From the NCBI GenBank assembly GCA_964347045.1, contig CAYFXC010000007.1:10549-74548 (forward strand): a stretch of DNA of 64,000 nt, read 5' to 3'. Every line of letters begins with the position of its first letter. Positions within the stretch are counted from its first letter, which is position 1. Source of the stretch: an uncultured archaeon. GTDB lineage: Archaea > Asgardarchaeota > Hermodarchaeia > Hermodarchaeales > Hermodarchaeaceae. The position numbers were made by a program, and so were the translations under genes. Of the stretch, positions 975 to 63,701 are shown in pieces. Below the pieces are notes generated by a model, which was not told the DNA's origin, made no database searches, and saw only the letters and a list, made by a program, of their open reading frames with translations.

Positions 975-2516
975 ATGATGCAGTCGGACCCACCGGATAA
1001 AGAGCCGGAGAATGCGGAAGAACATTTCGGAGCGGCCTCAGAATCATCGGATTCCGTGCAAATTGAACCCATTGCCGAAGTCGTTGGTAAAACAACAACC
1101 CACACACTGAAAATTCGAGTGATTAAACAGGGAGACGTCGGCCGAAACGACTTTCTTTCTATTAATCACCAAGGAGAAGAATATCTGCTTCTTTGTAAAG
1201 AACTATGGCGCGAAAGTGGAAAAACAACGGGGCAATGTAGTGTTGTTGGTCCAATGCCCCGAACTCCCTTTAATCCTGAGATGATGATATACAAAGCAAC
1301 ACCAAGAACTGTGAGTGCCGCGCTGGGGATTAATGTATCAATTGATGAAGGAGCATACGTAGGTCAAATCTCTGGAAATACAGTTCCAGTGCGTTTGCCT
1401 GTGAAACGATTGGGACGATTATTTGTTGTTGGAAAAACAGGGAGTGGAAAAAGCTATACTACAGCTGTAATTATGGAAGAATTTCTGAAAAAGGGAATTC
1501 CTGTTGTTGTACTGGATCGTCATGGAGAATATTCAAGTCTAAAGATTCCTGCGGAAACAAGAAATGAACGTTTTGATGTGGAACCGCGAAGTTATGAAAT
1601 GAGTGTTATTGAGTTTGCGGATTTGCATGCCAATCCAGGAGCAGACCTTCCCATTGAAGCACTCCTTGGTACACACCCGAAGGATTTGGTAGTTTCTGGT
1701 CAGGGAACAATTATCAATTTTCGTGGTCTTGATTTAGGTGTTCAAGAGGCCCTGTCGCAGGAAATTCTTAGTGATCTTTATCATGCTGCTGTGAATCGTG
1801 AAATTCCACCATTCTATTGTTTTGTTGATGAGGCTCACACATTAGCTCCAAATAGGGGGAAAGCTGCAACGACGGGAATGATGCGTTTATTTGCTCAAGA
1901 GGGTCGGAAATTTGCGGCTAATTTAGTAGTCATTACGCAAAAGCCTCAACTCCTCGACACAATCGTTCGGAGTCAAGTTGGCACATGGATTATTCACCAA
2001 TTAACCGATGTCCGAGATGTGGATATCACAGTCTCAAGCACAGAAGGGCTTTCGAAGGAATGGGCTGAAGATATACAACGCCTTGATACCGGTCAGGCAG
2101 TTATTGCAGGTGATGCCGTTGAAGTTCCTGTATTTCTGGATGTTCGATACCGAGAAACTACGCATGGCGCAACTGGTTTTAATCCACTAGATTTTGCTGA
2201 AAAACAAACTTTGGAAGAATTAGAGAAACGCCGAATTCGATTACGCACAAATTTTGCTGGACGAATTAAAGCGGCAGTAGAACGTTTCCAGCAATTAACG
2301 GCAAATGCTAATGGGGGTCAGATGCCTCAACATGTTCATGCCCTACGATCAGAGCTTCAGGCTGCTGAACAGAAACTCAATGATATCCGAGAGGAAAATT
2401 CGAAATTAACAGCACGAATCCGAGAACTGAAAATCGAACTCAAAAAAGCTGAGGAGAAATACAAGAAAGCGATGAATATTGCTGAGCGCGCATTAGCTGA
2501 GCTTAAGGGACGTTAG
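975..2516 (+). CDS. HerA/FtsK-family (DUF87) ATPase with C-terminal coiled coil
   Basis: Walker A GKTGSGKS, LDRHGEY, Walker B VDEAH, EGRKF, TQKPQ; N-terminal HAS-barrel-like strands; heptad-rich tail; start moved to ATG 975 after GAGGT. Confidence 0.85.
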   Translation: MMQSDPPDKEPENAEEHFGAASESSDSVQIEPIAEVVGKTTTHTLKIRVIKQGDVGRNDFLSINHQGEEYLLLCKELWRESGKTTGQCSVVGPMPRTPFNPEMMIYKATPRTVSAALGINVSIDEGAYVGQISGNTVPVRLPVKRLGRLFVVGKTGSGKSYTTAVIMEEFLKKGIPVVVLDRHGEYSSLKIPAETRNERFDVEPRSYEMSVIEFADLHANPGADLPIEALLGTHPKDLVVSGQGTIINFRGLDLGVQEALSQEILSDLYHAAVNREIPPFYCFVDEAHTLAPNRGKAATTGMMRLFAQEGRKFAANLVVITQKPQLLDTIVRSQVGTWIIHQLTDVRDVDITVSSTEGLSKEWAEDIQRLDTGQAVIAGDAVEVPVFLDVRYRETTHGATGFNPLDFAEKQTLEELEKRRIRLRTNFAGRIKAAVERFQQLTANANGGQMPQHVHALRSELQAAEQKLNDIREENSKLTARIRELKIELKKAEEKYKKAMNIAERALAELKGR

Positions 2517-2538
2517 AATTAGACAGAAACGACCATGG

Positions 2539-2916
2539 TTATTTTGCTTGCCAAGCTTTCGTTGTGACTTTATCAGCAAGACCTTTGTCGCGTAATTCAT
2601 TTAGTGAGCGGATGATTTCGTTTCGTGGAATATCGACTCCCCCTGCGCCCCGAATTATAGTTTGGATAGCGCGTGGACGCTGAGGGCGTTCACGAATGGT
2701 TTCAAGAACAGCGGCCTGAAGAACAGAGAGTTTAGCTCGTTTTTTGGAGGATTTTTTTTGCTTGGGTTTTTCTTCTTCGATTGGCTTTTCTTCTATCGTA
2801 TCGATTTCCTCTTCAGAAACTTGTTCAGGTTTTACCTCTTTTTCAGGTTCTTCGGGTACGGGTTCTTCAGGGGTTTTTTGGGGGGAAGATTTTTTCTTTG
2901 ACACGTTCATCGCCAC
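2539..2916 (-). CDS. Small protein: charged disordered N-terminus plus C-terminal winged helix
   Basis: E/K/P-rich N-terminal half; LSVLQAAVLETIRE...IPRNEIIRSLNELRDKGLADKVTTKAW fits a wHTH pattern. Confidence 0.7.
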   Translation of the reverse strand: MAMNVSKKKSSPQKTPEEPVPEEPEKEVKPEQVSEEEIDTIEEKPIEEEKPKQKKSSKKRAKLSVLQAAVLETIRERPQRPRAIQTIIRGAGGVDIPRNEIIRSLNELRDKGLADKVTTKAWQAK

Positions 2917-60030: not shown

Positions 60031-61011
60031 ATGACCATTGTTGATTTGCTAGATAAAGCAACTCTTCGATTTCTCCTTTTTGGAGGGAAGGGGGGAGTAG
60101 GTAAAACAAGCAGTGCCGCCGCTTCCGCACTTTGGGCAGCTGAACATGGTCGAGAAACTATTGTAATTAGTACAGATCCTGCGCACAGTCTTGGAGACTG
60201 CTTTGCCCAGGATATCAGTGGTGGAGAAGTCATTCCCATCAAAGGCGTAAAGAACCTTTACGGAATGGAAATCAACCCCCAAAAAGCATACGAAGAGTAC
60301 AAAGAAACTGCACAACAATCCGACACAGGCGAAATCGGCTCGATGGGTGATATGATGGGTCTTGAGGATCTCGCAGACATGAATGCTCCTGGATCAGATG
60401 AAGCACTTGCCTTTTCCAAAGTACTAGAATTTATTCATAAGTGCGAATATGATCTAGTTGTCTTTGATACTGCTCCTACAGGCCACACACTTCGCCTTTT
60501 AGGGCTCCCAGAAATGCTTGACAGCTTTTTTGGAAAACTCATCAAATTCCGAATGCGATTCAGTAGCATGTTTAGCCGATTAAAATCGATATTCGGACGA
60601 GGAGACCCAAAAGGAGAAGACCGGTCTTTGGAAAATCTCGAGAACCTTAAAGTCGCCATTAATGAAGCACGGGTTGAACTCACTGACCCGACACGAACTA
60701 GCTTTGTCATTGTTATGATTCCTGAAGCTATGGCAGTATCTGAGACTGAACGCCTTTTACAAACACTCTACGAATATCAAATTCCAAGTAGCCATATTAT
60801 TGTGAACATGGTTTTCCCAGATATTCCAAATTGTCAATTTTGTAGGGCTAGAAAAACCATGCAGACCCAATATTTAAGCCAAATTCATGAGATTTATGAC
60901 GATTTCATGATTACAGAGATTCCTCTCTTCGAAGAAGAGATTCGGGGTATCCCTGCTCTAACACGTCTTTCAAGTTTATTGGCCACGGGTGTATTTCCAG
61001 AAAAAAGGTGA
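60031..61011 (+). CDS. Get3/TRC40-type ArsA-family ATPase
   Basis: GGKGGVGKT, STDPAHSL, PGSDEA, DTAPTGHTLRLL, Met-rich insert, CQFC.AR..MQ..YL..I. Confidence 0.9.
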   Translation: MTIVDLLDKATLRFLLFGGKGGVGKTSSAAASALWAAEHGRETIVISTDPAHSLGDCFAQDISGGEVIPIKGVKNLYGMEINPQKAYEEYKETAQQSDTGEIGSMGDMMGLEDLADMNAPGSDEALAFSKVLEFIHKCEYDLVVFDTAPTGHTLRLLGLPEMLDSFFGKLIKFRMRFSSMFSRLKSIFGRGDPKGEDRSLENLENLKVAINEARVELTDPTRTSFVIVMIPEAMAVSETERLLQTLYEYQIPSSHIIVNMVFPDIPNCQFCRARKTMQTQYLSQIHEIYDDFMITEIPLFEEEIRGIPALTRLSSLLATGVFPEKR

Positions 61012-61534: not shown

Positions 61535-61843
61535 ATGTCAGAAATTTGTCCTATTTGCAGTTTGCCTAAAGATATTTGTCGCTGCCAAGAATTGGCGAAG
61601 ACAGAGCAGCGAATAAAAGTAAGCGTCGAGAGACGAAAATGGGGACGGGAAGTTACTCTCATTGAGGGTATAAACAGCCGAGAAATTTCACTTTCCGAAC
61701 TTGTCACTAAACTCAAGATGAGATGTGCATGCGGAGGTAGTGCAAAAGAAGGTGTCATTGTTTTGCAAGGAGATCACCGCCACAACATCAAGAACATTCT
61801 TAGTGATCTCGGATTCCCCTCCGATAACATCGACGTTGCTTAA
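61535..61843 (+). CDS. Translation initiation factor aIF1 (SUI1)
   Basis: ICPICSLPKDIC.C, RRKWGREVTLIEG, LK..CACGGS.K, LQGDHR. Confidence 0.95.
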   Translation: MSEICPICSLPKDICRCQELAKTEQRIKVSVERRKWGREVTLIEGINSREISLSELVTKLKMRCACGGSAKEGVIVLQGDHRHNIKNILSDLGFPSDNIDVA

Positions 61844-61979
61844 CGCTAATCAGCTTCAGACTTGTCAATACAAGGCTTTGGATAGCCCATTGGTAGACAA
61901 ATAGCAGATGCAGAGGGGGTTATACCTTCTAAATATAAGAGGAAAGCTTTTTGTGGGAGGGCTTGGTTCAACATTTCTT

Positions 61980-62001
61980 CGTGCCGGGGCACCGTGCCGG
62001 G
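61980..62001 (+). repeat. Direct repeat CGTGCCGGG x2 duplicating the tRNA-His 5' acceptor strand in the leader
   Basis: CGTGCCGGG at 61980-61988 and 61993-62001. Confidence 0.8.
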
Positions 62002-62150
62002 ATTATGTTGGTAAGTATTTACCAGCTCCCGAAGGTGTAAACTGGTAATTACCCAGGCGCAATGGTAGCATTGAAGCCTGTGGAACCCTATCCTCATGGA
62101 TAGGATGCTGAGAGCTTTAGGTCGGGGTTCGAATCCCTGTCCCGGCACCA
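61996..62150 (+). tRNA. tRNA-His(GUG) with three introns: 8/9 (62004-62033), 15/16 (62041-62062), 37/38 (62084-62112); A73; CCA encoded
   Basis: Splicing gives a 74-nt cloverleaf GCCGGGAUGGUGUAAUGGUAGCAUUGAAGCCUGUGGAGCUUUAGGUCGGGGUUCGAAUCCCUGUCCCGGCACCA; BHB-type motif at each intron; adjacent to hisS. Confidence 0.88.
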
Positions 62151-62165
62151 TTTTTCACTATCAAC

Positions 62166-63701
62166 ATGAATAATAGAGAGAAGTACGAACATGAGTTGAT
62201 GAAAATGAAACGCGGAAAAGATCTAGCCGTTGGTGGATTTCGAGATTTCTACCCTGAACTTTATCAACGAATTGATAGAATACTTCAAGCCTTCCGTGAG
62301 ACTCCTAAATTGTTTGGTTATATCGAATATGAGTGCCCAACAGTTGAACCACTAGAACTATATCAGTTGAAATCCGGACCATCACTCGTTGAAGAAACTT
62401 TCAAAGTCACAGATCGCAAAGACCGGCAGCTTGTATTGCGTCCAGAAACAACACCCTCTCTTGCTAGGATGCTTGCCGCCCAACAGCAGTATTATCCACG
62501 CCCAATACGGTGGTTTTCAATTTCGCGCGTATTTCGAGATGAAACCCAACAACGAGGGCGCGTTAAGGAATTTTGGCAATTGAATGTCGATATTTTAGGC
62601 ACCGAAGATGTCGCCGCTGATGCCGAAGTTATCAACGTGCTCGCAGCAATCATTCTAAGCCTTGACTTCACACCAAAAGATTTCGTTATTCGGATCAATG
62701 ACCGGCGCTTAATCCAAAGTTTCATCGAATCATTGAAACTTACCAATTACACAGAGATTATACGAGTCTTAGACCGGCGCGAAAAACTCTTACAAGAATC
62801 CATTGTTGACCGGCTCACAAAAATCGGTACCCCAGCAAAAAAAGCGGACCAAATTGCCCTCAAACTTCGTCATTTCTATATTGGAAAACAAAAAGCCGAA
62901 CCAAAACTTCCAGCTTCTAAAGAAATTACAGAATTGAAAAAAAGTCTTCCACAACTTCAACGTCAGGCACTTATCAATGCACTTCGAAAAACGGGTATTA
63001 CTCAACAGGCAGCAGAACGACTCACTGATTTTTCTGCAATTCGAGGAACACCAAAAGATTTCCTTAAGGCCATGGATGACATAAAACTTGACAAATCAAC
63101 TCAACGAACCTTAGGCCCTCTTAGGCAACTCGCTATGCAATTGAATGACTTAGGAATAACAGATGTCTGTGAATTTGATGCAGGAATAGCCCGGGGGCTT
63201 GATTATTACACGGGCATCGTCTTTGAAGCTTGGGACCGCCGTACGGGATTACCTCGAGCAATTGCAGGAGGAGGTCGCTATGATGATCTTGTCGGCATTT
63301 TTGAAGGACAACGACTGCCAGGGACTGGATTCGGTTTTGGTGAGACTGTAATTTTGGAACTTGCTGAAGAAATGAACTTGCTTCCACCCCCAGAACCACC
63401 CGCTGAAATCTATTTAGCTCCGGTCTCAAAGAAACAACTAAGCAGTTGTCGAGAAGTCGCCTCACTCCTCCGAGCAGCGGGAATAAGGACACTTTTCAAT
63501 GGTTTTTCATGGTCACTAACCAAACATCTTGAGGATGCCAGTAAACGTCAGATCCCATTTGTTGCTATCATTGGACCTCAAGAACTTGCCAAAAAGGTCG
63601 CTAATGTCCGTGATATGAAGACTGGTAAAGAGCAGTCAGTTAAGATCACAAAATTAGCAGATTTCATTCAAGAAAAGCTTCAAAAAAGAACCAAATCTTG
63701 A
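62166..63701 (+). CDS. hisS: Histidyl-tRNA synthetase with enlarged insertion domain
   Basis: GFRDFYP, LRPETTP, motif 2 FRDETQQRGRVKEF, ARGLDYYTG.VFE, GGGRYD.L, GFGFG, anticodon-binding domain. Confidence 0.97.
   Translation: MNNREKYEHELMKMKRGKDLAVGGFRDFYPELYQRIDRILQAFRETPKLFGYIEYECPTVEPLELYQLKSGPSLVEETFKVTDRKDRQLVLRPETTPSLARMLAAQQQYYPRPIRWFSISRVFRDETQQRGRVKEFWQLNVDILGTEDVAADAEVINVLAAIILSLDFTPKDFVIRINDRRLIQSFIESLKLTNYTEIIRVLDRREKLLQESIVDRLTKIGTPAKKADQIALKLRHFYIGKQKAEPKLPASKEITELKKSLPQLQRQALINALRKTGITQQAAERLTDFSAIRGTPKDFLKAMDDIKLDKSTQRTLGPLRQLAMQLNDLGITDVCEFDAGIARGLDYYTGIVFEAWDRRTGLPRAIAGGGRYDDLVGIFEGQRLPGTGFGFGETVILELAEEMNLLPPPEPPAEIYLAPVSKKQLSSCREVASLLRAAGIRTLFNGFSWSLTKHLEDASKRQIPFVAIIGPQELAKKVANVRDMKTGKEQSVKITKLADFIQEKLQKRTKS

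Follow-up and report, generated by a model that had tools for sequence, protein, structure and literature searches.

A histidine tRNA gene with three introns and an upstream copy of its acceptor strand in an archaeon of the Hermodarchaeaceae

The window analysed here, a stretch of 64,000 nt from an uncultured archaeon of the family Hermodarchaeaceae (Asgardarchaeota; assembly GCA_964347045.1, contig CAYFXC010000007.1, positions 10,549 to 74,548), contains a tRNA-His(GUG) gene at 61996-62150 on the plus strand, in which exons of 8, 7, 21 and 38 nt are separated by introns of 30, 22 and 29 nt. We regard it as very likely that this is a three-intron tRNA-His gene, and we hold with good confidence that it is functional and the sole detectable histidine tRNA gene of this archaeon, which is the best explanation of the evidence as a whole. 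Just upstream lies a second copy of the 5′ strand of the acceptor stem, hereafter the leader copy, which accompanies the intron between tRNA positions 8 and 9 (site 8/9) and for which we are inclined to accept a functional role, with appreciable reserve.

Gene structure and its conservation

A first-pass annotation, made from the letters of the window, had proposed that the 155-nt gene becomes a canonical 74-nt tRNA only after three removals, and the sequence and a tRNA finder agree on this point: the exons joined in silico form a 74-mer that ARAGORN calls tRNA-His(GUG); its GUG anticodon sits in a standard cloverleaf with U8 and A73, in which the acceptor stem has 7 bp and the D arm is normal, and the CCA is encoded. 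The expectation that standard finders would overlook the gene was also borne out, as ARAGORN did not detect the unspliced gene and Rfam at its gathering score returned no match across the whole window; over the locus itself the Rfam tRNA model gives a partial match of 19 bits, below the 29-bit cut-off.

All parts of the gene lie on the plus strand. Exon 1 (61996-62003, GCCGGGAU) supplies tRNA positions 1-8 and is invariant in all 17 genes of the family, and exon 2 (62034-62040, GGUGUAA; positions 9-15) is likewise invariant. Exon 3 (62063-62083; positions 16-37) carries the anticodon GUG at 62080-62082 and is 0.99 identical among orthologues, and exon 4 (62113-62150; positions 38-76) has A73 at 62147 and ends in the encoded CCA. 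The introns occupy 62004-62033 (site 8/9), 62041-62062 (site 15/16, present in all 17 family genes) and 62084-62112 (the canonical site 37/38, with a hairpin that covaries). Directly after the gene, a run of five T (62151-62155) that is kept in congeners is a likely archaeal terminator.

Each intron is bounded by a bulge-helix-bulge (BHB) motif. The rule of Marck and Grosjean, as restated in a recent preprint (10.64898/2026.10.13.758758), calls for a 4-bp central helix between exon and intron bases, two 3-nt bulges, and cuts 2 nt 3′ of the helix strands, and in all three introns both cuts fall 2 nt 3′ of each central-helix strand within 3-nt bulges. At site 8/9, C3-G6 pair with CCCG at 62028-62031 in canonical geometry (CGGG/CCCG, 4/4 bp), with bulges AU↓U and AA↓G (arrow, cut) and an 8-bp inner stem GUUGGUAA/UUACCAGC. 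At site 15/16, G10-U13 pair with GCGC at 62057-62060 (GUGU/GCGC, 4/4 bp, two of them G-U), with bulges AA↓A and AA↓U and an inner stem CUGG/CCAG. At site 37/38, C32-U35 form three of four pairs (CUGU/GCUG), with bulges GG↓A and AG↓A and a stem CCUAUCC/GGAUAGG; the remaining pair is a U-U mismatch in the present species, and most congeners have the full 4 bp. The helices and stems, and the bulges at site 8/9, were all found as the first-pass annotation had described them. All three introns have an inner helix (h′), which covaries in introns 1 and 3. The outer helix (h) is the anticodon stem for the 37/38 intron; the 15/16 intron has none and so belongs to the HBh′ type, an accepted class; and that of the 8/9 intron is weak, comprising C2:G10, G1:U11 and two possible further G-U pairs, for which a helix between CACC in the leader and GGUG in exon 2 can substitute.

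The hairpins of introns 1 and 2 (62007-62026 and 62042-62056) share the pattern CUGGUAA...UUACC(C)AG in the present species and in two congeners (G003 and G013), and not in most others; judged from this resemblance, intron 1 might be derived from an older intron 2.

When the DNA of 40 relatives was searched, the gene turned up in 12 congeners (82-92% identity) and, divided between the ends of two contigs, in a thirteenth, as well as in each of the four sister-genus species. The same three introns occur in twelve congeneric species, with invariant exons and covarying intron hairpins. Across 13 aligned orthologues and 52 proposed pairs, 95.6% of cells hold standard pairs and 10 pairs have changed on both sides, among them all but one of the nine in the intron-1 hairpin; none of 500 shuffles scored as high, and slid partners were only 35-46% paired. 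On this comparative evidence, the agreement with the three-intron structure is far beyond chance.

The sister genus and two metagenome contigs supply natural junctions. Two of its species (G016 and G018) keep the 15/16 intron only, G015 lacks the 8/9 intron, and G017 has the 8/9 and 15/16 introns and lacks the 37/38 intron; the 8/9 junction reads letter for letter as predicted in G015, G016 and G018, as does the 37/38 junction in G016, G017 and G018. Since every family member has the 15/16 intron, a natural intronless comparison comes from metagenome contigs L086 (about 2500-2581, minus strand) and L087 (2188-2258, plus strand), which are AT-rich (26-28% GC) and carry an intron-free tRNA-His followed by a gene for histidyl-tRNA synthetase (HisRS; 28-29% identity). 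Their tRNA is identical to the spliced product from G9 through the anticodon arm and matches both the 15/16 and the 37/38 junction, so that natural genes without the introns bear out all three junctions. By sequence alone the 15/16 junction could be read as 13/14, 14/15 or 15/16, given the flanking A residues, and it is fixed only by the BHB rule. The tandem of tRNA-His and hisS on these contigs indicates that this arrangement is older than the family. Exact-pattern scans for intron-free copies gave none on the contigs of the species genomes and these two in the metagenome scan, and a BLAST search of 151 genomes of the phylum with a one-intron orthologue gave, beyond the family itself, only a tRNA-Gly.

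A leader copy of the acceptor strand

The leader copy, GTGCCGGGG, lies at 61981-61989 on the plus strand and can form 8-9 bp with the 3′ acceptor strand, UCCCGGCAC at 62140-62148, so that it is a potential decoy for the partner of exon 1. The copy of the strand (GUGCCGGGG) sits 13 nt upstream of exon 1, outside the interval covered by the first-pass annotation. Between the two, the spacer at 61990-61995 consists of CACC and the bases GU at positions -2 and -1; in the minimum-energy fold CACC can pair with GGUG of exon 2, and this pairing, which would close the 8/9 motif from outside, survives one-sided changes in 13/13 sequences.

Three features of the leader copy bear on its interpretation, the first being its occurrence. 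All 13 complete genes and the one split gene with the 8/9 intron have it, and none of the three syntenic orthologues lacking that intron does. The HisRS tree does not settle the branching of the four sister-genus species, and two gains or two losses of the 8/9 intron are equally parsimonious; G017 has certain details in common with some congeners, both in the leader copy (CGTGCTGGGAC) and at the intron 3′ end (AGCTGGCACC), and these resemblances hint at a single origin of the 8/9 intron followed by precise loss.

The second feature is position. A predicted promoter-like box resembling a transcription factor B recognition element and TATA box (AAAGCTTTTTGTG, 61943-61955, plus strand) is conserved in both genera; from its start to the G1-equivalent of the leader copy is exactly 40 nt, as it is to G1 of exon 1 in the orthologues without the 8/9 intron. 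In other tRNA genes of the present genome a T/A-rich box starts 32-43 nt before G1. The same reasoning has been used for Thermofilum, in which tRNA promoters lie 30-49 nt upstream (Chan et al., PMC3218864). As its spacing from the box equals that seen for exon 1 in the orthologues without the 8/9 intron, the leader copy stands where exon 1 ancestrally stood and would be expected to be transcribed.

The third feature is conservation. Among 12 congeners, mean pairwise identity is 0.92 for the leader copy, 0.96 for the central-helix strand and 0.52 for the intron-1 hairpin, and the changes seen in the leader copy (C to U opposite G70, and a variable seventh base) retain at least 8 bp with UCCCGGCAC.

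In one congener (G009; L010, orthologous to 61980-62003) the leader copy and exon 1 both read GCCGGGAT, and either of them as first exon would give the same tRNA; from its sequence, this state may be close to the ancestral one that followed a duplication.

The association also holds within the present genome. The assembly has 36 tRNA genes in which the T arm and CCA are intact. An 8/9 intron interrupts three of them, namely those for His, Leu(UAA) and Ser(UGA), and an upstream copy of the acceptor strand was found only in these three, at distances of 13, 42 and 17 nt, respectively; the hypergeometric chance of that 3-in-36 split is 1 in 7140, counting the tRNA-Ser gene, which is possibly foreign. 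The tRNA-Leu(UAA) gene (L034:16-168, equivalent to about 237965-238117 of contig C1 of the present genome, minus strand) has one 24-nt 8/9 intron with a central helix of G3-G6 and CCCC, and its GCGGGGG copy 42 nt upstream belongs to an arrangement kept in both genera. [quoted passage not shown] The tRNA-Ser(UGA) gene (L033:75-223, equivalent to about 1404-1552 of contig C59, plus strand) shares exon 1 GCCGGGAU with tRNA-His; its 8/9 intron is 31 nt long and ends in CCCGUA, its 37/38 intron has 13 nt, and its leader copy, GTCGGGAT, lies 17 nt upstream. This gene, on a contig of 2.8 kb, has no orthologue in 18 relatives and may therefore be foreign DNA, and we left it out of the independent support.

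Folding models and competing explanations

Because C3-G6 belong both to the central helix of the 8/9 motif and to the acceptor stem, the splice motif and the acceptor stem are mutually exclusive. In folding models of the precursor without the leader copy, exon 1 is taken up by the acceptor stem (P 0.97-1.0) and the helix between C3-G6 and CCCG has P < 0.01 in 13/13 orthologues; with the leader copy, the 3′ acceptor strand is paired to the copy (P about 1) and the C3-G6:CCCG helix reaches P 0.72-0.99 in 10/13. Forming the strict 8/9 motif, with its six bulge bases unpaired, costs 3.4-8.1 kcal/mol with the copy and 7.0-12.4 kcal/mol without it, a saving of 3.0-5.5 kcal/mol (median 4.3) in 13/13 orthologues. 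The 8/9 motif is thus predicted by these models not to form without the leader copy. As the fold switch largely follows from having a duplicated strand, the argument for a role rests on co-occurrence, conservation and position, not on the energies.

A broader interpretation, which we hold slightly more likely than not, is that the transcribed leader copy is a cis-acting folding helper, needed for, and gained and lost with, any tRNA intron that borrows the acceptor stem (here those of tRNA-His, tRNA-Leu(UAA) and a tRNA-Ser at site 8/9). Several observations weigh against a role for the leader copy or against the view of the locus as a functional, sole tRNA-His gene. In G002, G006 and G017 (3/13) the unconstrained fold lacks the 8/9 helix even with the copy. 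After removal of all introns the decoy pairing is still favoured by 3.2 kcal/mol in the model, and tertiary structure, modification or RNase P would have to resolve it after splicing. The modelled switch is a near built-in consequence of two copies of one strand, which makes it weak functional evidence by itself; the 8/9 hairpin is local and could fold and be cut while the transcript is still growing and has no 3′ strand yet, in which case the copy would be unnecessary; and the 3′ strand is invariant, so that no true compensatory change with the leader copy can arise, and only one-sided changes from C to U that keep a G-U pair are seen. Finally, the present assembly is 89% complete, leaving room for a second tRNA-His.

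The most serious alternative is that the leader copy is a neutral by-product of the origin of the 8/9 intron, either through a 13-nt tandem duplication or through an insertion carrying a second exon 1, and that it has no role in splicing, the intron being cut co-transcriptionally or with the assistance of proteins. The two strand copies do form a 13-nt tandem repeat with 10/13 matches, the upstream copy is still as far from the promoter-like box as exon 1 ancestrally was, which is what a tandem duplication would produce, the 8/9 hairpin and helix could form before the 3′ strand is made, and a decoy that remains favoured after splicing is awkward for a transient helper. We nevertheless consider this alternative rather unlikely because the copy is conserved nearly as well as the central-helix strand (0.92 versus 0.96) whereas identity in the neighbouring intron hairpin has fallen to 0.52, because its changes preserve pairing with the 3′ strand, and because the arrangement recurs in tRNA-Leu(UAA) of both genera and, at a different spacing, in tRNA-Ser.

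A second alternative takes the upstream copy as the true exon 1 and the first intron as a 43-nt element that contains the second copy. The upstream copy does sit at the exon-1 place of orthologues without the 8/9 intron, and in G009, where both copies read GCCGGGAU, the tRNA would be the same either way, but that identity over positions 1-8 is found only in G009. Elsewhere the upstream copy makes a poor exon: position 8 is not U in 12/13 species, position 7 is variable (G, A, U or deleted) and U3 occurs in three species, whereas the downstream copy GCCGGGAU is invariant and reads exactly as the orthologues without the 8/9 intron do at their 5′ end. This reading is accordingly very improbable. 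Least probable of all is a decaying pseudogene with a working tRNA-His in the unassembled part of the genome, to which the incomplete assembly, the U-U mismatch in the central helix of intron 3 and the 'possible pseudo' flag that Valentin-Alvarado et al. (PMC11291895) gave the three-intron tRNA-His of Atabeyarchaeia-1 lend some colour, but against which stand exons 99-100% identical over 12-17 species with introns drifting through compensating changes, the lack of a second tRNA-His-like sequence in 19 family genomes and the conserved synteny with hisS.

Processing, genomic context and relation to known systems

We propose the following course of processing. Transcription would be driven by the promoter-like box, which lies some 40 nt ahead of a short leader, and would stop at the T run past the encoded CCA, giving a precursor that bears the three BHB introns at 8/9, 15/16 and 37/38. 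In this precursor the leader copy would pair with the 3′ acceptor strand and so free exon 1 for the 8/9 splice motif; an EndA of (alpha-beta)2 type bearing a Crenarchaea-specific loop would excise the introns, RtcB would ligate the exons, and RNase P would take off the leader, before which exon 1 would have to displace the leader copy.

The genome encodes enzymes suited to these steps. One of two EndA paralogues (alpha; L001 1222-1779, 186 aa) matches the catalytic subunit of A. pernix (3P1Z_B, E 6e-45), keeps the Tyr/His/Lys residues, and shows no gap in the alignment across the Crenarchaea-specific loop, in which a lysine is aligned to K44, a residue required for broad EndA specificity (Hirata et al. 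2011, PMC3241643). In the other (L002 1465-2061, 199 aa) the catalytic His is replaced, as in structural beta subunits. By sequence the pair fits the two-subunit (alpha-beta)2 type with a broad substrate range, and Asgard archaea with an (alpha-beta)2 EndA bearing this loop have already been published (PMC5829648). An RtcB gene and an archaeal RNase P RNA (177 bits) are also present.

The first-pass annotation had reasoned that splicing must be ordered, given that the 8/9 and 15/16 motifs share the 7-nt exon 2. This is not supported: the central and inner helices of the two motifs have no bases in common, and either order is possible; the overlap with exon 2 is limited to the weak, optional outer helix of the 8/9 motif. 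In the folding model the two motifs jointly cost 7.8 kcal/mol, compared with 4.6 and 5.1 kcal/mol for each alone, and removing either intron shifts the cost of the other motif by only about 1 kcal/mol. Two endonuclease molecules may not fit side by side on the two motifs.

Upstream of the gene are a Get3/ArsA-type ATPase gene (60031-61011, plus strand; Pfam E 2e-94) and, nearer, SUI1 (61535-61843); downstream, hisS (62166-63701, plus strand) starts 16 nt past the CCA and encodes a 511-aa histidyl-tRNA synthetase (Pfam tRNA-synt_His, E 5.7e-50, with matches to HisRS structures in the PDB) whose closest solved relatives are the HisRS of Thermoplasma and trypanosomes. The order SUI1 - tRNA-His - hisS is kept in 16 orthologous loci. 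No second tRNA-His was detected in the present genome or in the 18 other genomes of the family (assemblies 72-91% complete). A gene caller could report in place of the tRNA a 101-aa open reading frame on the minus strand (61846-62151); this frame has no Pfam match, is conserved in the manner of an RNA gene and is almost certainly not a real gene.

A tRNA-His has an extra G at position -1 (G-1) opposite position 73, which is either encoded or added by Thg1. The present gene does not encode it: U (A in G009) precedes G1, and A stands at position 73, whereas the intronless homologue on L086 and L087 encodes G at -1. A Pfam search for Thg1 found none in the 19 family genomes (72-91% complete) and detected it in five other genomes of the phylum. 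By this gene content the family may have a tRNA-His identity system that is independent of G-1, and post-transcriptional addition of G-1 by a route other than Thg1 is possible.

Multi-intron tRNAs in Asgard archaea are already published, and the leader copy tied to an 8/9 intron is the point added here. Introns interrupt 92-95% of tRNA genes in Atabeyarchaeia and Freyarchaeia, and the list for Atabeyarchaeia-1 includes a tRNA-His with three of them (PMC11291895). A 2026 census of Asgard genomes counts 2.2 insertions per tRNA gene, reports that introns in the D arm are often missed, and pools a few insertions at the 'acceptor stem and junctions' as 'other' (preprint 10.64898/2026.10.13.758758). 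Like the genes described in these two papers, which have several short BHB-type introns, many of them at non-canonical D-arm sites, the present tRNA-His has three introns, two of them non-canonical; unlike the present work, those papers cover other lineages and name no 8/9 site, and the preprint does not contain the words 'leader' or 'decoy'.

Thermoproteales offer a second parallel, with tRNA genes of up to three introns, relaxed HBh′ motifs and a broad-specificity endonuclease (PMC4090602, PMC4033280, PMC3241643), and they share with the present genome an EndA of (alpha-beta)2 type that has the Crenarchaea-specific loop and the lysine at K44. In their accessible portions, reviews of this order list sites 20/21, 22/23, 25/26, 29/30, 30/31, 45/46, 53/54, 56/57 and 59/60 and the extreme 3/4 (PMC4090602, PMC4033280); those portions neither include site 8/9 nor describe a leader helper strand. 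According to the first-pass annotation an 8/9 site is not known to have been described, and to that extent the consulted portions of the reviews agree with it, but the site is not unique to this gene, being shared by tRNA-Leu(UAA) and tRNA-Ser. Our search of the literature on positions 8 and 9 found only papers on modification, and a search on BHB, leader and acceptor stem found no paper that describes a leader copy.

A further parallel is offered by the trans-spliced split tRNAs of Nanoarchaeum equitans, Caldivirga and Aeropyrum (PMC3218864, PMC4090602), in which extra complementary sequence outside the mature tRNA likewise builds the helix context for the endonuclease. In split tRNAs, however, the extra sequences pair with each other, join two transcripts and are removed at the BHB, whereas the proposal made here is of a copy of an exon strand in cis that occupies the partner strand and is removed by RNase P.

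These results recover a tRNA-His that is invisible to ARAGORN and to the Rfam tRNA model, and for want of which the genomes of this family would seem to have no tRNA-His, and they extend the picture of heavily interrupted Asgard tRNAs to another lineage and to an acceptor-proximal site. The SUI1 - tRNA-His - hisS locus provides a clean natural comparison, with sister species carrying the 8/9 intron and the leader copy together or carrying neither, and it yields the testable idea that an intron invading the acceptor stem needs a stand-in strand, an idea that bears on the origin of such introns since the stand-in occupies the ancestral position of exon 1. If the leader copy is indeed a folding helper, the gain of introns near the ends of tRNAs would require two coupled changes, and the copy would define a novel class of element in pre-tRNAs, one that gene finders might exploit.

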